NCBI GenBank assembly: GCA_019057795.1
Contig: JAHLWS010000071.1
Coordinates: forward strand, 32,001 to 96,000
Reading direction: 5' to 3'
Origin: Promethearchaeota archaeon
Lineage (GTDB): Archaea > Asgardarchaeota > Lokiarchaeia > Sigyniarchaeales > SOKP01
DNA: 64,000 nt
A model generated the notes under the pieces. The model did no database searches. It saw nothing but the letters and a program-made list of their open reading frames with translations, and had not been told where the DNA came from. Each line of letters opens with the position of its first letter. Position 1 is the first letter of the stretch. Position numbers and translations under genes: made by a program. Shown piece after piece: positions 18,632 to 30,992 of the stretch.

Positions 18632-20155
18632 TTAAATTAATTCTAAAAAATTAGGGTCGATTGTGTTAAGGGCAGACTCAATTTCTTTCTTCACTTTCCA
18701 ATCGTCGTCCCATAGCAACTTAGCTAACCATTTTAAAGCTTCTTTATCTCCTATTTGACCTAAAGTTTTTGCTGCTGCAATCCGCATCTTAGGGTCTTTG
18801 TCTTTTAATAGCGTTACAAAGGGAGTTATATCGCTAATATTTTCTAGTTTTCCTAACGACATCGCTACCCAACTTCGAATAAATATGTCTTTATCCCCCA
18901 TCAATCCAATTAAAGATTCGGTAGACTTATCATCACCAATTTTAATTAAAAGTTTAACTGCTGCTCTTCTTGTTTTCCAGTTTAAATCGTTTGTTAAATT
19001 TTTTGCGCTTTCAATTACATTTTCGCTCCCAAACCTTGATAATGCTTCAATTGCTGCATCCCTTACCTTACTATCATCATCACTTAATAAAGCAAAAAGT
19101 GCGTTGATTAAATTTTCATCCCCAATTTCTCCGATAACTCTTGCGCATAAACTCTTAATTTTCCATTCTTTCGCGTTCAAACCCTCGACTATTTGAGTTG
19201 GAACCGTATCTTTAAAAATATTTAGTATTGCTTTATACGCTAACTTTCTCAATTTTGAATCTTTACTGTTAAATATTCTTATAAGATAATCGACAGAATT
19301 TTTATCCTCTAATAAGCTCAACAATTTTATCGCTTCTCTTCTAGAAATAATATTTCGTCCGTTTAAAATTTCGTAGATTTTATCGTATGGCGGTTGATTT
19401 GAAAGAATAGAGAACAAGGTTCCAACAGATGACTTTCGAATTTCAGGATTTTTTTCTTTTAAAAATTTAATTAAATAAGGAATAGCCCTTTTACTTTTTA
19501 TAGTGCCTATAGCTTTGATTGCTGATTTTTTTACATGTAAATCCTCGTCGCTTAAAGCGTTCAGAATAAACTTTGCTTCTTTTAATTGAATTAGTTTTTC
19601 TAACCCTTTAACTGAATTCTTACGAATTAATGGGTCTTCGTGGGTTATTAATTGTTTTAATCTCTCAATGCACTCTCTACTGCCAATCTTTCCTAATATG
19701 TAAGGGATTGATCTTTTAACATGAATATTTCCTTTGTTTATATAATCGAATATTATATCTAAAGCCCCTTCTTTCCCAATTCTTATAATAGAAGCAAGAA
19801 CAAATCCCTTAATCTCTAGGGAGGGATTCTGGAGCATGTTTAACAAAGGTATTAAGGCTATGGACGCTTTTGCTTTACCTAATGCTATCACAGATGCTTT
19901 TCTTGATTCAATATTATTGTCTGTAAGAGCTTTGATTAGGATTTGGATGGAAATGTCGTTTATGTTTTTCCCGGCAACATCGATTATTTTTTTTCTTACT
20001 TTTCCATCGCTTTCGCTTTTATACTGAGACAAGAGAAATTCTAGCCATCCATTTTCAAAATGCAGAGCCACTGATTCGATTAATTGTATTTTTTTCAGGG
20101 GAACTGTCTCTTTTAGATATGAATTTTTAAGTTCTTGGAAACTCATAAATAGCAA
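18632..20155 (-). CDS. HEAT-repeat (PBS-lyase-like) protein
   Basis: Many LxDxxxxVRxxAxxALGxI repeats. Confidence 0.88.
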   Translation of the reverse strand: MLFMSFQELKNSYLKETVPLKKIQLIESVALHFENGWLEFLLSQYKSESDGKVRKKIIDVAGKNINDISIQILIKALTDNNIESRKASVIALGKAKASIALIPLLNMLQNPSLEIKGFVLASIIRIGKEGALDIIFDYINKGNIHVKRSIPYILGKIGSRECIERLKQLITHEDPLIRKNSVKGLEKLIQLKEAKFILNALSDEDLHVKKSAIKAIGTIKSKRAIPYLIKFLKEKNPEIRKSSVGTLFSILSNQPPYDKIYEILNGRNIISRREAIKLLSLLEDKNSVDYLIRIFNSKDSKLRKLAYKAILNIFKDTVPTQIVEGLNAKEWKIKSLCARVIGEIGDENLINALFALLSDDDSKVRDAAIEALSRFGSENVIESAKNLTNDLNWKTRRAAVKLLIKIGDDKSTESLIGLMGDKDIFIRSWVAMSLGKLENISDITPFVTLLKDKDPKMRIAAAKTLGQIGDKEALKWLAKLLWDDDWKVKKEIESALNTIDPNFLELI

Positions 20156-21113: not shown

Positions 21114-21380
21114 TTATGAGCTGATCAATTGAAAGAGAATGTTTGCATGTGGTATATAGAATTGGTCTTTCGCTTTTATAACCACCGTATGAAAGTATTC
21201 AGCCAAACCTAAGAATCCACGAATTACAGATTCGTCCTCCTCAAATTTAAACACAATTTTCGCTATGGCGGCACCACTACTAAAAGTTACTTTATCGTAA
21301 ACCCGCTCATCGATCAATGGAATTTTTAACTCATTTACAATCTCGTAGACCCTTTTTATAAAAAGCTCACGTTTTGCCAA
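21114..21380 (-). CDS. Small hypothetical protein
   Basis: 88 aa ORF, TTG start preceded by AGGTG SD, globular composition. Confidence 0.65.
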   Translation of the reverse strand: MAKRELFIKRVYEIVNELKIPLIDERVYDKVTFSSGAAIAKIVFKFEEDESVIRGFLGLAEYFHTVVIKAKDQFYIPHANILFQLISS

Positions 21381-21672: not shown

Positions 21673-22401
21673 TTGGTTTCTAAGGAATACAAAAAGATAG
21701 AACGCGTTGTTAACTTTATGAAAAAAGGTCTACAATCATTAAGTGACGATCTAGAAGACACAGTTGGGGGCATAAACGATTTTATAAAGTCTCTAAATAA
21801 AGCCTTAAAGGATTTGAAAGAAGTATCATTAAAACCAGAGCTTAAAACTGTTAGTAGTTCCTCTAAAAAAATTGTTGCTCAAGCAAGTGGAACGGCAAAA
21901 ACTGCTGCTGCGAGCACATTATTTAGTTTATTGAGCGGTAGTGCTGGACCTGGACAACAAGCACCCGCTGCTACTGCAGCGAGCGTAGCCCCAGTTGCTG
22001 GCGGCCCCCCAAAAGCTCCAGTTGCTGGCGGTCCTCCAAAGAAACCCGCTACAAGTGGTCCTCCAAGGGCTCCAGTTGCTGGCGGTCCTCCAAAGAAACC
22101 CGCTACAAGTGGTCCTCCAAAGGCTCCTACGGCTGGTGGTCCGCCTAAGCGTGCTAATCTACCACCCGCTCCAAAGTTACCTCCAGCATCTGGTGGACCT
22201 CCACAAGCGCCTGGTGCGGGAGTTGTTCAAGCGCCATCATTTGCTAAAAGGCCAGCGCCTCCTGGTGCGCCCGTAGCAGGTGACCCTCCCCGACCTGCAG
22301 ATCCAGCAACAGCAGCTACTGCGGGAGGCGGATTAAGTTCTTTACGCGATGAAATGTTAGAAGAGTTAAATCGCCTCAAGAAAATCATGAGAGGAGAATA
22401 A
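21673..22401 (+). CDS. Proline-rich protein: N-terminal coiled coil, GGPP repeats, C-terminal WH2-like helix
   Basis: 242 aa ORF; six 9-aa repeats (e.g. PVAGGPPKA); ends GGGLSSLRDEMLEELNRLKKIMRGE. Confidence 0.8.
   Translation: MVSKEYKKIERVVNFMKKGLQSLSDDLEDTVGGINDFIKSLNKALKDLKEVSLKPELKTVSSSSKKIVAQASGTAKTAAASTLFSLLSGSAGPGQQAPAATAASVAPVAGGPPKAPVAGGPPKKPATSGPPRAPVAGGPPKKPATSGPPKAPTAGGPPKRANLPPAPKLPPASGGPPQAPGAGVVQAPSFAKRPAPPGAPVAGDPPRPADPATAATAGGGLSSLRDEMLEELNRLKKIMRGE
21991..22152 (+). repeat. Coding tandem repeat, 6 x 27 bp, with a 54-bp higher-order duplication
   Basis: Units such as ccagttgctggcggtcctccaaagaaa and cccgctacaagtggtcctccaagggct; 22018-22071 and 22072-22125 are nearly identical. 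Confidence 0.92.
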
Positions 22402-22472
22402 AAGTATATTTTTTTTATTTTAACTGTATTAATTCGCAAAATTATTAATCCTAAAACAAGAGGACATTACTT

Positions 22473-23219
22473 GTGGAAAGAAAAGATTTTCTTATAGCTG
22501 AAAAAAAGATTCCTATTGTTGTTCCTAAACGTTTAATGGTGTTTGCGGGTCACCCAGACGACGAAATTGTTTCATGTGGTGGAACGATTCTTAAATATCA
22601 AGCATTAGGTTCTGAGATTTTTGTAGTAGTAGCTACAAGTGGATTGGGTGGATACGCTAAAACGGCCCAGAAGGAAGATATCTTAGAACATCGAAAGCAA
22701 GAACTCGATTTAGTTCGAACAGCTTTGAAATGTAGAGTAATCGAATTAGGTCATTCTGATTTGGAGGTGAATAGAGAAATTATCTCTGAAGTGACGAACC
22801 TTATTAGAGACATCCGCCCTCAAGTGATTCTATTACCCCACTTTTCAGATTTTCATAGAGTTCATAGAAATTTGTCTTTAATTACAAGAGAAGCTATTTA
22901 TCATTGTTCAACGGGAAAAGCTTATGGTGGTCACGAGAGAAACTGGACTCCGTTAGGAGTGTATTATTACGAATCGCCTTCTTGTAAATTTCAATATATA
23001 GAAGGTTCTGTCTTTATAATAGTTAATATTGAAAAATATTGGGTAGAAAAGAAAGAAATTTTTAATCGGGTTTATAAATCTCAGAAAGAAGTGCTAGAGC
23101 GAGTTTTGGATTGGGCTGAAGATACTTCAATTTTACGAGGAAACGAAATTAACTCAAAGTATGGAGAAGCTTATATTCCTATGACAGAATACACTCCTTT
23201 GAAGATTTTATTAATTTAA
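22473..23219 (+). CDS. PIG-L/LmbE-family deacetylase
   Basis: HPDDE motif, GGTI, DFHRVH. Confidence 0.88.
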   Translation: MERKDFLIAEKKIPIVVPKRLMVFAGHPDDEIVSCGGTILKYQALGSEIFVVVATSGLGGYAKTAQKEDILEHRKQELDLVRTALKCRVIELGHSDLEVNREIISEVTNLIRDIRPQVILLPHFSDFHRVHRNLSLITREAIYHCSTGKAYGGHERNWTPLGVYYYESPSCKFQYIEGSVFIIVNIEKYWVEKKEIFNRVYKSQKEVLERVLDWAEDTSILRGNEINSKYGEAYIPMTEYTPLKILLI

Positions 23220-23329
23220 AAATAAATAGGTTAATTGGAGAATTCAAATAAAGTTATATTAATTAAATATAATAGATTTTTATGAGAAAGATAAAGTATT
23301 AATAGATAATCTGTTTGGGAATAACAATT

Positions 23330-24445
23330 ATGGGAAATCTCACAGTCGTTTTGGATATTGGGCAGTTCTCGACAAAAGCCGGGTATGCTGGGGAAGATAT
23401 GCCAACTCAAATCTTTTTTACTATAGTAGGTAAACCTAAGTATAGACAGATCGATTACGAATACGCGGGTACTAAACAAGATGAATATTATGTAGGGGAT
23501 GAAATCCAATCAATAGGACTGTATAAAATTTTTTACCCAATAAAGAAAGGAATAATTCAGGATTGGTTATCGTTCGAAAAAATTATTGATTATATTTTTT
23601 ACAATTTGAGAGTAGATCCAAGTTTAGTCAATGTTTTATTCGCCGTACACCCATTGTTTCCATACGGGGATATAAAACGGCTATTTGAATTGTTTTTAGA
23701 AAACTACCAGTGCAACGCGTTTTATCCCGTTTTAGACTCTATGCTTACTTTATATGCGGGAGGATTTCAAACAGGGTTAGTGGTTGAGATTGGGGATAGT
23801 ATCACGAGAATCGTGCCAATTTACGAGGGATACAAGATAGATCATGCAGTAAGAATACTTGAGATTGGTGGAAGAACTTTAACCAAGTACATGGAAAAAA
23901 TATTAGGAGAAAGGGGATTTTCAGCTGACTCTTCAATTAGAAAGGAACTGGTAAGGGCTCTCAAAGAAAAAGCGTGTTTCGTCTCGCTCGATTATAAAGA
24001 AGATTTAAAAAGAGTTGAACAGTATGAAAAAGAGTATTCTTTACCGGATGGTTCTACTATTTCTTTGAGTAAAGAAAGATTTGCAGTACCTGAGCTTTTT
24101 TTTAATCCAACATTAGAATTGGAAGAAGATTCTTTAACAGAGGCTATTATGGATGTAATCGAAATGTGTGACGTCGATATTCGACCAGACTTATTGAACA
24201 ATATTTTTTTATCGGGAGGTTCTTCTATGTTTCCAAATTTTAAATCTAGAATGTATCAAGAATTAGAATTTGAATTAGCACGGAGGAAGAGGAAGAACCA
24301 AATTATCAAAATTATAGCACCTAGGGAACGAGTTTTCTCTGTTTGGGTTGGTGGCTCAATAGTAGCTAGCATACCTGAATTTCAAAGCAATTGGATAACA
24401 CGTGCCAAATATTTTAAAGATGGCATCCCAGAGAATCTTTTATAG
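23330..24445 (+). CDS. Actin-family (actin-related) protein
   Basis: LDIG..TKAGYAGED.P, YVGDE, YPI..GII.DW, TGLVVEIGD, VPIYEGY, LPDG, LSGGSSMFP, SVWVGGSI; likely start is the ATG at 23330. Confidence 0.95.
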   Translation: MGNLTVVLDIGQFSTKAGYAGEDMPTQIFFTIVGKPKYRQIDYEYAGTKQDEYYVGDEIQSIGLYKIFYPIKKGIIQDWLSFEKIIDYIFYNLRVDPSLVNVLFAVHPLFPYGDIKRLFELFLENYQCNAFYPVLDSMLTLYAGGFQTGLVVEIGDSITRIVPIYEGYKIDHAVRILEIGGRTLTKYMEKILGERGFSADSSIRKELVRALKEKACFVSLDYKEDLKRVEQYEKEYSLPDGSTISLSKERFAVPELFFNPTLELEEDSLTEAIMDVIEMCDVDIRPDLLNNIFLSGGSSMFPNFKSRMYQELEFELARRKRKNQIIKIIAPRERVFSVWVGGSIVASIPEFQSNWITRAKYFKDGIPENLL

Positions 24446-24998: not shown

Positions 24999-27185
24999 TT
25001 ATCTTTTCACGCACTGTTCATTTAAAATTTTATGAGTTTCGCAATTAGAGCAAAATCCATTAACAGAATCGTCCTTAAAGCTATCGCTCCAACATTTTGG
25101 ACAAATATAATAAGGTAAAGGTTTACCATTCTTTCTTTTCACGATTTTAAAGGTATTAAAGCCACATATTGAGCAGAAGGAAGTTTTTAATATAGTAATT
25201 CTACCAGTTTTGGGAACGGAGAGGTAAGTTTTGCAATCTATATTTGAACACGCGAGAAATCTTTTCTTTTGTGAGGTCGTAACTAGCTTCATTGGAAATT
25301 TTTTGCAGGTTGGGCAATTAGCAGTAGTTATTGGATATCTTTTTTGTTTAAAGTCATGTTGCATTGCTGTTTTTAAATTTTTTTTAACGCTATCAAATCT
25401 TAAAGTAATTGCATTTCTGTTGTTAAGAAACTTATCAAACAATTCAAGGAAAATTTTTTTTACAATTTTTATCACGTCTTCTTTAGTCTTCCTATTTTCC
25501 TTTATGTCTTCGAGTAATTTTTCCACAAATCGCGTAAATTCAGGTTTTAAGAACGGTAACCATACTTTTATTAATTCTCGTATTATAAATTTGCCCCACT
25601 CCGTTATTTTGAAATGATTTTTGTCAATTCGCAAGATTAATTTACGATCGATAAGAATTTTAATTATAGTAGGACGAGTCGATTTAGTTCCTAGGTGTTC
25701 TCTCTCCATTAATTTCAAAAGAGTAGTATCAGTATATTTTGGTGGAGGCTGAGTTTCCTTTGCGTTTAATTGAATATTTTTAATTGGAAGTTGTTTTGCT
25801 TCGATTTCTATCGTTGGTTGATAGCTTTTCTTTAAAAAAGGCGCAATTTCATAAAAACCACTTGAGACTAACGAAACCAATCGCGAAGTAAATGGTTCTT
25901 CTTTTATAGATATTTTTAAAATTGTCCTCGATTCTTTTGCTTGTTCTCCGAAAAGAGCTAAATAATGTCGAGCTAATAAATCGTAAACTCTTCTTTGAAT
26001 ATTTTGTTCAAATTTAGAACTATTTTGTTCCAAGCTCTCTAAAGGAGTAATGGGAGGGTGATCTCCGGCGTCAAATTTCCCAATTGTAGGCATTACGCGT
26101 TTTTTAGTTAGTAATTTTAAAGTGTAAGATCCATAGTTAGTGTGAAGTTTGAACTTATCCAAATACTGAATATGGTTAAAAATTGATTGGTATTTATCGC
26201 TATCAGTCCTAGGATAAGAAATTATCTTATTTAAGTAGAGCGCGTTCATGGCGTTCATGGCAGCATTTGCGCTAATCTTTAACCTCCTAGTTAATAAAAC
26301 GAGCGCTTTCGAAGTATTCAAAGGCGTCGGAGGGTTTATAACATTTGTATTTTTACTATTGCTCAAAATTACAGCAATTTTTTCATTTTTTATTTTTTGA
26401 TGGATATTTTTTGCCTCCAGTTCCTCCTCTTTAATAAAAGGGTTCTTATCGTGGAAGGCTTTTATTATATGGGTTTTATAGCTTAAATTCGCTTCTATTG
26501 TCCAATATGGTACAGGTACAAATCGCTCTATTTCTTGATCCCTTAAGAATATTAAATAGAGCAAAGACGTCTGTACCCTCCCTATCGACACAAATTTAGC
26601 ATTAATCTCGTTTAGTAAAGGCTTAAACGTATTTGTAACCTCTCTCGTGCTTGAGAACCCAATTATCGCGTCAATTATGGCTCTAGCCTCGCCTGTCTCA
26701 CCCCAACTCCACTTTGGATTTATCAAATTGGAATATTTAGAAATAATCTCTTTTTTTTGTAATGAACTTAACCACAACTGACGCACTTTAATAGTTTTAT
26801 TAGCTTTAATAACAAACGGTAAGGCGTCAAAAAGCCCAATGTTGCATCCTTCAATATCTGCATCGGTACCGATTACGCATTCATCGCATAATTTAGCGTA
26901 CTCTTTTAACGCGCTAATATATGGCCTAGAATAACTCTTGGAGGCTTTTTCTATTGAATTTGGATTAGTAATTATTTCCCTAGGATTAGATTTCGTCCAA
27001 CTTTTAAATAGATCGGTGTTTTTATACTCTAAAATATGTCCTCGAAGAGGAACAACGTAAATATCTTTAGAATTTACCCGATATACTTTTAAGAATTTTG
27101 TTTTGTTTATAGTCGTAACAGGACCTAATGCTTCGGCTATTGCCTTTGCTGCTTTATTTTTTTCCGATATTATTAAAATCGTCAT
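24999..27185 (-). CDS. topA: Type IA DNA topoisomerase (Topo I/III) with C-terminal zinc ribbons
   Basis: TOPRIM SEK, TDADIEG, SIGRVQT, catalytic ISYPRTD, HPPITP, LGTKSTR. Confidence 0.93.
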   Translation of the reverse strand: MTILIISEKNKAAKAIAEALGPVTTINKTKFLKVYRVNSKDIYVVPLRGHILEYKNTDLFKSWTKSNPREIITNPNSIEKASKSYSRPYISALKEYAKLCDECVIGTDADIEGCNIGLFDALPFVIKANKTIKVRQLWLSSLQKKEIISKYSNLINPKWSWGETGEARAIIDAIIGFSSTREVTNTFKPLLNEINAKFVSIGRVQTSLLYLIFLRDQEIERFVPVPYWTIEANLSYKTHIIKAFHDKNPFIKEEELEAKNIHQKIKNEKIAVILSNSKNTNVINPPTPLNTSKALVLLTRRLKISANAAMNAMNALYLNKIISYPRTDSDKYQSIFNHIQYLDKFKLHTNYGSYTLKLLTKKRVMPTIGKFDAGDHPPITPLESLEQNSSKFEQNIQRRVYDLLARHYLALFGEQAKESRTILKISIKEEPFTSRLVSLVSSGFYEIAPFLKKSYQPTIEIEAKQLPIKNIQLNAKETQPPPKYTDTTLLKLMEREHLGTKSTRPTIIKILIDRKLILRIDKNHFKITEWGKFIIRELIKVWLPFLKPEFTRFVEKLLEDIKENRKTKEDVIKIVKKIFLELFDKFLNNRNAITLRFDSVKKNLKTAMQHDFKQKRYPITTANCPTCKKFPMKLVTTSQKKRFLACSNIDCKTYLSVPKTGRITILKTSFCSICGFNTFKIVKRKNGKPLPYYICPKCWSDSFKDDSVNGFCSNCETHKILNEQCVKR

Positions 27186-27398: not shown

Positions 27399-30300
27399 TT
27401 ACTTTGGTAGAGTAAAACTAATCTCGGCTCCCTTATCCCTTCCTTCAGATTCCACCCAGATTTTACCACCATGCACTTCAATCATCCCTTTACTAATAAA
27501 TAGTCCTAATCCACTTCCTTTTTCAAAAGCAGAATAGCTTTCAGTGGCTTGCCCAATTGTAACAAATTTACCAAACAATTTCTCAATTTCTTTTAAAGTT
27601 AACCCCTTTCCGTGATCCTTTATTTTAAAAAGAAAATTTTGATTTTCTTCTAAAACATTAACATTAATTGTACGATCGTTAGTAGAAAATTTCACTGCAT
27701 TTGATAAAATATTCGAGAAAACTTGCGTGATTCTAAATCGATCTACTTTTAGTTCAAGATCCTCGGGGATATTTAAGTTTATAGCTAATTTTTTTTGAAT
27801 AATTTGATATTCTAATTCAGAAAGGCAATCTGTTATTATATCGTAAATATTTTCGACTTTCTTAACTATTTCGATTTTGCCCGCATCGATTTTCATCACA
27901 TCCAATAACCGATTTATGTAACTTTCCAAACGGGCTACATTGCTTAGTACTCGATTTAAATCTTCTTTAATATCATCTTTTAAATCTTTCTCTCTTAATA
28001 AAATTAAATCGATATAGCCCCCCACAGAAATTAAGGGTGTTTTTAAGTCGTGAGCGGCAATGCTAATAAAATCGGTTTTTAATCTATCTAATTCTTTTAG
28101 CTCTATATTTTGCTGCCTTAAGATTCGCTCGGATTCTTTCAATTTCTCCTCTGCGATTTTTTTTTCAGTTATATCTTGAATTATAGCTTGAATTATTGTT
28201 TCACCAGCTATTTTAATAGTGGATATTTCAGATTCGACCCACAACATTTTGTTATCTTTGTTAAATATTCGTACAGTTTGGGGTTTCATTACGATACTCA
28301 TTGGGTCCCTTTTACGCTCCAGCTCTTGAAGCGTTCTCAATCCTGGTTTTGTTTCTGAAGGAAAAAGGTTTGAAAGTTTTAAATAATTCTTACCAATAAG
28401 GTCCTCTTTTTTATAACCAAACAATTCAGACGTTTTAGAATTAATGTCAATAATTTCACCTTTATTGTTTAAGAGCGCAATACTGAATGGAGAGTTTTCG
28501 TATAAATGGCGATATTTACGTTCAGATTCTCTTAATTCCTTCGTTCTTTCAAAAATTATTTTCTCAAGTTCTCTATTCAATATTTTTAATTCTTCTTCAG
28601 ATTTCTGTAATTTTAAGGCAGCTTCTTTTTTTCCCGTGACATCCTGAATTAAGACTTGTATAAAAGTTTCATCTCCTAATTTAATCGTAGATGCGCGAAT
28701 ATTAATCCATTTTTCTACTTTATCTGCGCGAGTAATTTTGAATTCTAACGGTTTTACTGGCTCATTATTGATAAAACTTTCAAATCTACTTTTTAAAAGC
28801 GGAATAAAATATTCTGGTCGATCGAATAAAGTTAAAATTTCTATAAAATTCTTTCCAATAAGGTCCTCTCTCTTGTATTTAGATGGTAATATATTCATAG
28901 TCGAATTACAGTCAATTATTTTCCCCTTTAAATCTATAATCCATATGGCAAACGGAGAACTTTCAAATAAGTGTCGATATTTTTTCTCCGACATAATTAG
29001 TTTTTTCTCCGCTTGTTTACGGGCGGTTATAACTCTTGCAAAACTTATGGCTTTAGTAATTTTTCCGTTTTCTTTCAAAGGAACCGCATTTATCTCACAA
29101 TCATAAACTTCACCTAGAGTGTTTTTTGCAGTAATTTCAAGACCTTTAATTACTTTTCCTGCTTTCAATTCATTAATTTGGACTTTTAATTCTTCGAGAT
29201 TTGCTCCTGCAAAAAATTCTAGAATTTTTTTATTTTGCGCTTCTTTTAAACTTATTTTAGTTTTCTCAAGAAAAGCTTGATTGGCATCTAATATATAACC
29301 TTTTAAATCAGTGAGATATACTAAATCAGGGCTGGCATTAAAAATAGTGTGGTATTTTTCTTCTGATTCTTTAATTTTTTTATCGGCTTCTTTGCGTTCT
29401 GTAATATCCCTTCCAATAATTATTCCTTTAATCTTACCTTCTCTATCTTTAAAAGTGTTTCCTTTAACTTCTATCCATATCCAACGATTATTTTTATGTC
29501 TAATTCTTAGCTCTAAAACGCCTTTGCCTGTATCGAGACCTTCAACCATCGTTTTAATAGCAATTTTTTTATCACCAGGATGAATAATTGCTAGAACTGA
29601 TTTTCCAATAATCTCATTGTTGGTATAACCTAAGGTCCTTAACCATGGTTGTTTATTTGCGTATTCAATTTGAAGATTTTGATTTAAAATACTAATCAAA
29701 TCATAAGCATTCTCTGATATCAATTTGTATCTCTCTTCTGAGCGTTTAAGTTTCTCTTTTAGAAGAATTTTCTCGGTAAAGTCTTGTACCATTCCACAAA
29801 AACCAGATTTAGCACCTTTAGCATCGTATTTTAAATATACTGATGAATTTACTACGATTTTTTGTCCATTTTTCTGAAGAAACTCAAACTGGAAATTACG
29901 TTGTACCACCTCTTTTTTATAAACTTGGTTATAGAAGTTGAATACTTTTTTCCTATTGAATTCATCTGTCAAATTTTGATAACTTTTACCAAGTAATTCT
30001 TCTTTTGAATAACCCGTCATTTCGCAAAATGATTCATTTAAAAACATAAAAGTTCCTTTTAAATCAACTTCAAAATACCCTTCTTTAATGTTTTCTAATA
30101 TGCTTCTATATTTATTCTCAGATTCTTTTATCTTTTGCTCAGCGTTCACTCTATTAGTGATATTGTTATAAGTGCATAGAATTCCTACGATATCCCCTTC
30201 AAGATTATGAAGCGGTACTCGATTTATTTCAAACCACGCTTTGCTTCCGTTGTGTAATATCCACGATTCAATCTTTTCTTCACTTTGATTATTATTCATA

Positions 30301-30992
30301 ACCCTTTTTTCATTTTCTTGAATTAATTTTAAGTTAGCTTTAGCCCATGGTAAATTTTCATCAGTTTTTCCGACAATAAAATCTGGATCTTCAACATTAT
30401 TTACGAAAGCATAATTTTGGTTACAACCCAGATAAGTTAAATTTTTATCTTTCCAATAAATTAATTGAGGAATATTATCGATAACAGAGTCCAACATCTC
30501 TCGCGATTTTTGAAACGATGTTTTCTCACCTTTAGTTTGCAATAATTTCCAGAATCGAAGCTCTGGCATGGTTTCTGCCAATCTTCTTAAGTTAAATTCG
30601 CGCTTAAGCCATTCATCTTCTTTTTGCTTAAATTCAGAGATGTCTCGAGAAATTATTAATATTTTAACTTTTTCAGCGTCATTAATAAATCGTTTTCCCT
30701 TTAATTCATAATATCCATATCCTTCTTTTTGACGAATCCTTATCTGCTCGATTGCTTTTCCAGTTTTTAAGATGTTTTGAAGAAAAATCAAACCTCGATT
30801 TAAATCGCTGTAATAAAAGTTATCTAAGATTTTATGAGCTAAACAGGAATAACCTAATTTTTTCAGATGGACTCTTTCATTAATATATTCACATTCAAAG
30901 TTTTCATTTATAATATAAATTAAATCATCAAAATTTTCTTTAAGAATTTCGCCAATATTATATTCTTTTCCAAAATCGGAAACTGATGCCAT
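27399..30992 (-). CDS. Multi-PAS sensor histidine kinase
   Basis: Repeated PAS/PAC units with ESExKYR linkers; H-box AAHDLKTPL; NILSNAVKF, DxGxG, GSGLGL. Confidence 0.93.
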   Translation of the reverse strand: MASVSDFGKEYNIGEILKENFDDLIYIINENFECEYINERVHLKKLGYSCLAHKILDNFYYSDLNRGLIFLQNILKTGKAIEQIRIRQKEGYGYYELKGKRFINDAEKVKILIISRDISEFKQKEDEWLKREFNLRRLAETMPELRFWKLLQTKGEKTSFQKSREMLDSVIDNIPQLIYWKDKNLTYLGCNQNYAFVNNVEDPDFIVGKTDENLPWAKANLKLIQENEKRVMNNNQSEEKIESWILHNGSKAWFEINRVPLHNLEGDIVGILCTYNNITNRVNAEQKIKESENKYRSILENIKEGYFEVDLKGTFMFLNESFCEMTGYSKEELLGKSYQNLTDEFNRKKVFNFYNQVYKKEVVQRNFQFEFLQKNGQKIVVNSSVYLKYDAKGAKSGFCGMVQDFTEKILLKEKLKRSEERYKLISENAYDLISILNQNLQIEYANKQPWLRTLGYTNNEIIGKSVLAIIHPGDKKIAIKTMVEGLDTGKGVLELRIRHKNNRWIWIEVKGNTFKDREGKIKGIIIGRDITERKEADKKIKESEEKYHTIFNASPDLVYLTDLKGYILDANQAFLEKTKISLKEAQNKKILEFFAGANLEELKVQINELKAGKVIKGLEITAKNTLGEVYDCEINAVPLKENGKITKAISFARVITARKQAEKKLIMSEKKYRHLFESSPFAIWIIDLKGKIIDCNSTMNILPSKYKREDLIGKNFIEILTLFDRPEYFIPLLKSRFESFINNEPVKPLEFKITRADKVEKWINIRASTIKLGDETFIQVLIQDVTGKKEAALKLQKSEEELKILNRELEKIIFERTKELRESERKYRHLYENSPFSIALLNNKGEIIDINSKTSELFGYKKEDLIGKNYLKLSNLFPSETKPGLRTLQELERKRDPMSIVMKPQTVRIFNKDNKMLWVESEISTIKIAGETIIQAIIQDITEKKIAEEKLKESERILRQQNIELKELDRLKTDFISIAAHDLKTPLISVGGYIDLILLREKDLKDDIKEDLNRVLSNVARLESYINRLLDVMKIDAGKIEIVKKVENIYDIITDCLSELEYQIIQKKLAINLNIPEDLELKVDRFRITQVFSNILSNAVKFSTNDRTINVNVLEENQNFLFKIKDHGKGLTLKEIEKLFGKFVTIGQATESYSAFEKGSGLGLFISKGMIEVHGGKIWVESEGRDKGAEISFTLPK

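Follow-up and report, generated by a model that had tools for sequence, protein, structure and literature searches.

A conserved Asgard family of proline-rich proteins with a portable terminal helix, encoded in one lineage beside an actin paralogue

Results

Genes of the locus and architecture of PRP

We analysed a 64,000-nucleotide stretch of the genome of a Promethearchaeota archaeon (assembly GCA_019057795.1, contig JAHLWS010000071.1, positions 32,001 to 96,000 of the forward strand; the window, below), and describe here a proline-rich protein, PRP, that it encodes, together with the genes at its sides. An earlier note, drawn from the nucleotide sequence, had assigned an N-terminal helix, a proline-rich linker and a terminal helix to the open reading frame at position 21673 and had placed an actin homologue two genes downstream on the same strand. 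Translation and an AlphaFold2 (AF2) model confirmed this architecture, and the gene order also proved correct, with a PIG-L gene between PRP and the actin gene. The features of the locus are listed below with their coordinates in the window and, for helices, the predicted local distance difference test (pLDDT) scores of the corresponding AF2 blocks.

21673..22401, + strand: PRP (P0001), 242 amino acids, TTG start (open reading frame and translation)
21682..21822, + strand: long N-terminal helix of PRP, residues 4-50 (pLDDT 77-93)
21895..21933, + strand: short second amphipathic helix of PRP, AKTAAASTLFSLL, residues 75-87 (pLDDT 53-61, weaker)
21991..22149, + strand: basic proline-rich 9-residue repeats, xAGGPPKAP (Tandem Repeats Finder)
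22159..22185, + strand: LPPAPKLPP motif, residues 163-171 (9/9 residues invariant in 24 homologues)
22234..22254, + strand: PSFAKRP motif, residues 188-194 (P188, F190, K192 and R193 invariant in 24 homologues)
22333..22389, + strand: terminal helix of PRP, a putative docking helix, LSSLRDEMLEELNRLKKIM, residues 221-239, preceded by GGG (pLDDT 82-92)
21114..21380, - strand: p88, an 88-residue alpha/beta protein divergent from PRP, candidate partner of the PRP head
22473..23219, + strand: PIG-L family deacetylase (Pfam PF02585, E 3.9e-22)
23315..24445, + strand: actin paralogue, an actin-related protein (ARP, P0002; Pfam Actin, 298 bits)

The AF2 model of PRP was built on a 27-sequence alignment and had a predicted template-modelling score of only 0.21, which indicates that the protein lacks a compact fold. 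We refer to the N-terminal helix and the residues up to about 95 as the head, which is family-specific; L83 and L87 of the AKTAAASTLFSLL helix within it are invariant in the phylum-wide alignment. AF2 assigned no secondary structure to residues 88-220, leaving approximately 130 disordered, proline-rich residues in which the local pLDDT rose to as much as 71 at LPPAPKLPP. The DNA of the repeat tract has periods of 27 nt (5.9 copies) and 54 nt (2.2 copies, 95% matches). Because this part of the arm is encoded by tandem DNA repeats, homologues vary in length in the proline-rich middle, and the number of xAGGPPKAP repeats differs among them. At the C-terminus, by contrast, 24 homologues share 22 of the last 25 residues without variation, and the head is likewise invariant in them. 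The protein ends in RLKKIMRGE, with no acidic tract at this end and no tryptophan anywhere. In several homologues, TTG or GTG occupies the same start residue.

PRP belongs to an undescribed Asgard family

PRP represents a genuine, conserved and undescribed Asgard protein family, defined by the head (the N-terminal helix plus an xLFxLLSG helix), a proline-rich arm carrying LPPxPK(L/M)PP and a terminal helix of the form LRxEM[LM]xE[LI]xR[LI]K. The window's protein has all of these elements, and they align with those of homologues in 10 or more GTDB families. A word-indexed search returned more than 195 homologues, all of them unnamed or annotated as hypothetical save for one evident misannotation, and none contains a Pfam domain. 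A full-length PRP profile matched 168 of 400 Asgard genomes, a set that covers 400 species of the phylum and is used throughout. In the literature on Asgard WH2 motifs, polyproline, profilin and actin-related proteins we found no description of the family.

The family motifs are invariant in 24 close and 27 phylum-wide homologues. GTDB families are numbered here so that f1 is the family of the window, f3 is its sister family and f1-f7 make up one class. Distant members that keep both layout and motifs occur in two closed f3 genomes (~4.4 and 6.0 Mb) and in f4, f5, f7, f19 and f27; the f3 versions of the arm motifs read LPPPPK(L/M)PP and PSFA(T/Q)RP, and the end helix of the distant members reads GLxxLR(D/E)EMLKELxRLK(K/S)IM(R/K)G. 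A more divergent member, in which head and end helix are still recognisable, was found in f21, and f9 has a membrane-anchored coiled-coil protein with the same end helix as PRP.

The terminal helix is a portable module

The terminal helix is reused, at times internally or in tandem, on GTPase and zinc-ribbon proteins. A 30-position helix profile (A5) matched 334 of the 400 Asgard genomes and 81 of the 90 high-quality ones, with no match in families f8, f10, f22, f23, f24, f25 and f30. A word-based search for longer proteins bearing the f1-type helix had found none, but the later profile search did find such carriers: against 1.84 billion representative proteins it gave 56 matches at E <= 1e-3. 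In P0250 and P0291, a Ras/Roc GTPase is followed by one or two helices and then by a cysteine domain (CPxCG...NH..YF...GIPCCxCFKK), whereas in the GTPase-like proteins P0282 and P0294 the helix is itself the C-terminal end. Two or three internal copies precede the CPxCG...GIPCCxCFKK domain in P0249, P0263, P0277 and P0281, and P0286 has three repeats. Among the membrane-anchored proteins, P0275 carries the helix and P0273 is a PRP fused to a TIR domain. What is new here is a near-universal, nearly invariant candidate docking helix that sits on a proline-rich arm and is reused on small GTPases.

The genome under study has a second carrier, a 157-residue protein on another contig (C46:10762-11235, - strand) with an internal helix, FLRDEMLTELDHLKTLI, followed by a zinc-ribbon-like cysteine domain (CPICG...NH..HL..YF...GIPCCTCFKK). 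This cysteine domain has no Pfam family; elsewhere in Asgard it follows one to three helices and is sometimes fused to a Ras/Roc GTPase. Inspection of the carrier's neighbourhood by eye revealed nothing cytoskeletal.

On a helical wheel drawn from the alignment, conserved residues of the terminal helix cover ~260 degrees, with the variable positions 226, 230, 233 and 237 on one side. This wide conserved surface suggests that the helix is buried deeply in a groove or a bundle. One possibility is that the helix is a coiled-coil assembly tag and not a ligand for a globular hub. It would then form bundles with a second copy of itself, the PRP head or the helix of other carriers, so that PRP, the GTPases and the zinc-ribbon proteins co-assemble. 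In favour of such a tag, the a/d-type spacing of M228, L232, L235 and M239, with flanking hydrophobic residues, gives a wide apolar face, and other carriers have tandem copies. VASP likewise ends in a tetramerisation helix. In a search of the PDB with the helix profile, the nearest entries were leucine zippers and M-protein coiled coils (for GCN4, ...EVARLKKLV...), all of them non-significant, with E values of 0.03-5 over spans of only 7-11 residues. Moreover, the helix comprises ~2.5 heptads, which is short for a stable lone coiled coil, and the near-invariant R225, E227, E231, R234 and K236 would suit a specific heterotypic interface no less well. We regard the assembly tag as an unlikely explanation.

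p88 accompanies the PRP head

The small protein p88 is encoded upstream of PRP on the opposite strand and has 394 homologues, with 77-92% identity among the best 120 listed. Its AF2 model (pLDDT 88.9) has the topology alpha-beta-beta-alpha-beta-beta-beta. Foldseek found no PDB structure with this fold at E <= 1e-3, a wide VIA-align search gave a best Z of 4.4, and ESM Atlas features returned only the p88 cluster itself, so that p88 was matched to no known fold convincingly. Atlas look-alikes of the PRP head were likewise limited to its own cluster (score 0.80).

Profiles of the head (A6) and of p88 were both scanned over the same 400 Asgard genomes. The head and p88 co-occur family by family, as follows.

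f1: PRP head 113/134, p88 122/134
f2: PRP head 1/1, p88 1/1
f3: PRP head 11/14, p88 13/14
f4: PRP head 3/4, p88 3/4
f5: PRP head 3/3, p88 2/3
f6: PRP head 1/2, p88 2/2
f7: PRP head 2/2, p88 2/2
f19: PRP head 17/19, p88 16/19
f26: PRP head 3/3, p88 3/3
f27: PRP head 4/4, p88 4/4

Outside these ten families, the head gave only three marginal matches (E 1.8e-4 to 6.5e-4; f15, f20 and f21), and p88 was weakly matched in f20 and f21 and present in 3 of 89 genomes of three pooled families, all three in genus g76 of f31. The two genes are also neighbours: p88 adjoins PRP in 31 of 37 f1 loci and in f5, f7, f19, f21 and f27, six families in total. The pair is divergent in some families and convergent or tandem in others, which speaks against inheritance as an operon alone. 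Because p88 is lacking in f31 genomes with other helix carriers (see below), it would partner the PRP head rather than the terminal helix.

In about 12 f1 genomes the p88 match is 288-294 nt long, against 261 nt otherwise, and a single in-frame stop codon (TAG, TAA or TGA) interrupts it; examples are G184:C13:239794-240084, G207:C26:19202-19492 and G177:C20:12960-13250. A recoding site, a misassembly or a short insertion could account for such matches. In the p88 alignment (A2), 10 residues are inserted in P0233.

The actin paralogue adjoins PRP in one family only

Four actin-family loci are present in this genome, of which Lokiactin scores best (442 bits, contig C31) and the ARP of the window second (292 bits); the two proteins are 42% identical. 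In f1 the order p88, PRP, (PIG-L), ARP, small protein is near-universal, with ARP after PRP in 33 of 37 loci. Of the four loci in which this order is not visible, at least three are too short to show ARP. PIG-L is present in 28 of the 37 loci, and where it is missing ARP is the next gene after PRP. At locus L032 only a 65%-identical PIG-L fragment is left. This facultative presence, together with the fragment, suggests that PIG-L has been gained or lost repeatedly at the PRP-ARP spot.

The earlier note had proposed that PRP and ARP form one module and had named synteny across Asgard genomes as a check, with absence of the linkage in relatives counting against the proposal. The conserved architecture of PRP and the gene pair in f1 bear out part of this proposal, but the linkage is missing in relatives outside f1. 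The ARP orthologues of two closed f3 genomes are 52% and 49% identical to the window's ARP, compared with 43-44% for the Lokiactins of the same genomes. In f5 and f7 no protein is more than 44% identical to ARP, and PRP is nevertheless kept; since nothing there exceeds Lokiactin-level identity, the ARP clade does not reach these families. Members of the clade are confined to the order, whereas the PRP family reaches several classes. The actin paralogue beside PRP is thus a neighbour peculiar to one lineage, not the obligatory partner of the PRP family, and for that reason it is no proof of function.

Contigs from two Logan metatranscriptome runs match at 90-95% identity and hence come from relatives. 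They cover PIG-L plus ARP, p88 and the 5' part of PRP, and a single contig in each run joins PIG-L to ARP. Since neither transcripts nor their ends can be read from contigs, these matches are only a weak hint of expression.

PRP is not a recognisable member of the WH2, VASP or WASP families

Could PRP be an actin-assembly factor of the WH2/VASP/WASP type, with its helix in the barbed-end cleft of Lokiactin or ARP, its proline tract recruiting profilin-actin and the whole forming a nucleation module with ARP? The layout is VASP-like, with an oligomerisation element, a proline-rich region and an amphipathic helix near the C-terminus that contains Leu-Lys-Lys-hydrophobic, and in f1 the pair of PRP and ARP is near-universal and directly adjoining where PIG-L is absent. 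By analogy, carriers with two or three helix copies, or with a coupled Ras/Roc domain, may recall tandem-WH2 nucleators and GTPase-regulated nucleation-promoting factors. WH2-like motifs in Asgard archaea are so far known only inside gelsolins (PMC9433394; 10.1101/2025.11.30.690169), and Asgard polyproline motifs have been noted only generically (PMC8410842). WH2 itself docks in the cleft that separates subdomains 1 and 3 of actin.

Several results argue against membership in these families, with which the earlier note had compared PRP. First, hidden Markov model searches with Pfam, at E <= 1, gave no match of PRP or of 27 family members to WH2 (PF02205), EVH1 (PF00568), VASP_tetra (PF08776), Snf7 or any other informative family; the listings contained chance-level coiled-coil families only. 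The earlier note had cited GGGLMEEM as the start of the VASP F-actin-binding segment; the helix-profile search of the PDB gave no WH2, thymosin, VASP or CHMP chain at E <= 10. Second, LKKI (residues 235-238) does not follow a linker, as in WH2, but lies inside one continuous predicted helix (AF2, residues 221-239), and its second lysine and isoleucine vary in other lineages (RLKSIM, RIKEIF, RLKRLI) rather than being kept as LKK[TV]. Third, a WASP/WAVE VCA region consists of WH2, a connector helix and an acidic tail with a conserved tryptophan, whereas PRP has neither the acidic tail nor the tryptophan, and no long polyproline runs. It also differs from Ena/VASP, which begins with EVH1 and ends with EVH2 (GAB, FAB and the tetramerisation domain), in having its coil at the N-terminus, where PRP has a single long helix and no EVH1. 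Fourth, the ARP clade and the PRP family differ in reach, as described above, and adjacency is lost outside f1. Finally, the profilins of Loki and Odin reportedly do not bind polyproline (PMC8410842). Given the lack of a profile match, the variable in-helix LKKI and the absence of an acidic or tryptophan-containing tail, PRP is not a recognisable member of these families. It could still work like these proteins, but we consider an assembly factor of this type doubtful.

A precedent for an actin-directed function is arcadin-2 of Pyrobaculum (PDB 5LY3), which consists of a core, an unstructured and non-conserved linker and a conserved C-terminal helix that binds the hydrophobic groove of crenactin (PMC5173319). 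It is encoded in the crenactin gene cluster, and the helix alone carries the activity (PMC5173319). PRP resembles arcadin-2 in its architecture: here too an unstructured linker joins a core to a conserved C-terminal helix, and in f1 an actin-fold gene lies one or two genes downstream. As described, the two differ in that the PRP linker is proline-rich, encoded by repeats and equipped with invariant motifs of its own. They differ further in that the helix of PRP also occurs on GTPase and zinc-ribbon proteins, is linked to actin in one family only and would bind it only putatively.

A modest likeness to ESCRT-III tails

The terminal helix also resembles MIM1 peptides, as the earlier note had loosely remarked. 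The corresponding proposal is that PRP is an ESCRT/Vps4 adaptor in which the C-terminal helix is a MIM1-type ligand of an MIT domain, of Vps4 or another protein, and LPPAPKLPP is MIM2-like, in the order seen in IST1/ESCRT-III tails. MIM1 helices at a C-terminus follow a motif of the (D/E)xxLxxRLxxL(K/R) type. For Asgard ESCRT-III, such MIM1/MIM2 tails and their fit to MIT have been predicted computationally (Lu et al.; PMC7240154). The two ESCRT-III genes of this genome (contigs C38 and C82) encode tails ending in ...KELEDELNKLKSRD and ...KLEDEINKLRKELES, compared with ...DEMLEELNRLKKIMRGE in PRP. Each is an amphipathic helix at the extreme C-terminus with the register [LM]xxE[LI]x[KR]LK and an LPxxP-type element upstream. 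A regular expression written from the three tails had 11 matches in 2.5 million residues of six-frame open reading frames, and only these three lay within 8 residues of a stop. The register E-[LM]-x-x-E-[IL]-x-[KR]-L-K also occurs in ESCRT-III tails of 10 other Asgard genomes.

Because this expression was post hoc, we also made an unbiased test with a profile from the ESCRT-III tails of other genomes. It ranked the genome's own ESCRT-III tails first and second and PRP 93rd among 19,882 open-reading-frame C-termini; the reciprocal profile gave rank 38. We judge the likeness of PRP to the ESCRT-III tails to be real but modest at the level of sequence. Conserved helix residues beyond the MIM1 core (L221, L224, R225, I238, M239 and G241) are missing from the ESCRT-III tails, the PRP helix is longer than MIM1 and occurs internally and in tandem in other proteins, which fits MIM1 poorly, and PRP has no Snf7 core (PF03357, E <= 1). 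A complex prediction for the Vps4 MIT domain (A3) and PRP residues 208-242 (A4), run without controls, gave ipSAE scores of 0.02 and 0.01 (mark 0.32), which speak neither for nor against binding. On balance, a role as an ESCRT adaptor seems quite improbable.

In the same genome, Vps4 is divergently paired with an ESCRT-III gene on contig C38 (83246-85313) and has an MIT domain scoring 51.8 bits; its stop-to-stop frame is 412 residues long, or ~405 from the likely TTG start. A weak MIT-like match (28 bits, below the cut-off) lies at the C-terminus of a 457-residue protein encoded on contig C87.

PRP as a proposed tethering adaptor

The reading that we prefer, to which we assign a probability of roughly 60%, is that PRP and its undescribed Asgard family are tethering adaptors, which present a docking helix to a conserved hub. 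The head would oligomerise, bind the neighbouring p88, or both. The arm would act as a flexible polyproline-type spacer that carries docking motifs (LPPAPKLPP and PSFAKRP), and the glycine-hinged, 19-residue terminal helix would be a docking peptide that plugs into the hub protein. Ras/Roc-type GTPases and zinc-ribbon proteins would use the same peptide, singly or in tandem.

Which protein might be the hub? The hydrophobic groove of an actin-fold protein, as with arcadin-2, ParR and WH2, is a tentative candidate. It is the single most attractive one, because the C-terminal helix of arcadin-2, borne on an unstructured linker, regulates actin through such a groove; the near-universal order of PRP and ARP in f1 is a further point for it. 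With similar reserve we consider a partner in a helical bundle or in self-assembly, for which the PRP head and p88 would be options. A Vps4-type MIT domain is unlikely to be the hub, and the remaining probability goes to something else. The phyletic pattern does not separate actin from MIT, since both occur in families without the helix and, among the genomes checked, neither is missing where the helix is present.

Several observations weigh against parts of this picture. With respect to an actin hub, no actin gene lies within 6 kb of a PRP homologue in 13 loci from nine families other than f1 (four further fetched loci, in which the PRP open reading frame was not resolvable, were excluded from this count). 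In the two closed f3 genomes, 43 kb and 272 kb separate PRP from the ARP orthologue, and in f8, f10, f24 and f25 actin is present but the helix is undetectable. With respect to p88, its gene and PRP are apart in f3 and f4, by 25 kb, 263 kb and ~92 kb in three closed genomes, and the co-occurrence counts of head and p88 are not independent events, because f1-f7 are one class. Furthermore, no p88 was detected in six f31 genomes that encode both actin and MIT, five of which match the helix profile; as p88 is missing where other helix carriers exist, it is not a universal receptor of the helix and is at most a partner of the head.

A published co-immunoprecipitation table for L. ossiferum Lokiactin (10.1101/2025.11.30.690169, supplement 2) has, among the rows listed, none that matches the masses of PRP, ARP or p88. 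The expected masses were taken from orthologues in genome G138, treated as L. ossiferum (ARP, 42.21 or 40.99 kDa; p88, 10.31 kDa; PRP, 26.80, 29.08 or 26.43 kDa depending on the start codon), and the only row at 10.31 kDa bears an unrelated locus tag. This table says little about PRP, because the rows listed are only a part of the sheet and proline-rich proteins digest poorly.

We know of no Asgard nucleation or elongation factor. The Asgard actin regulators known so far are, in essence, profilins and gelsolins (bioRxiv 10.1101/2025.11.30.690169). A further and rather doubtful reading is that the terminal helix is an archaeal module for binding the actin groove, one that preceded WH2 or emerged in parallel with it, with PRP an oligomeric, p88-assisted factor for actin assembly or tethering. 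If this were true, carriers with two or three helices or with fused Ras/Roc domains would be GTPase-coupled actin nucleators, and regulated actin nucleation beyond profilin and gelsolin would predate eukaryotes.

Neighbouring genes and minor observations

Further genes flank the cluster in the window:

18632-20155, - strand: all-HEAT-repeat protein, 507 amino acids
24570..24962, + strand: 130-residue protein after ARP (homologous genes for 112-121 residues downstream of ARP at loci L005-L010)
24999-27185, - strand: Toprim/Topoisom_bac topoisomerase with C-terminal zinc fingers, syntenic with the cluster in several relatives
27399-30992, - strand: multi-PAS histidine kinase, 1197 amino acids, syntenic with the cluster in several relatives

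For the 130-residue protein, Pfam gave no family at the cut-off, the sole listing being chance-level (E 0.12); its gene may belong to the ARP unit. In two closed f3 genomes (G135:C1 2215481-2260819 and G138:C1 456402-467106), the cluster is dispersed: p88 and the ARP orthologue are no more than 19 kb and 10 kb apart, whereas PRP has moved to 25 kb and 263 kb from p88, which hints at a tie between p88 and ARP.

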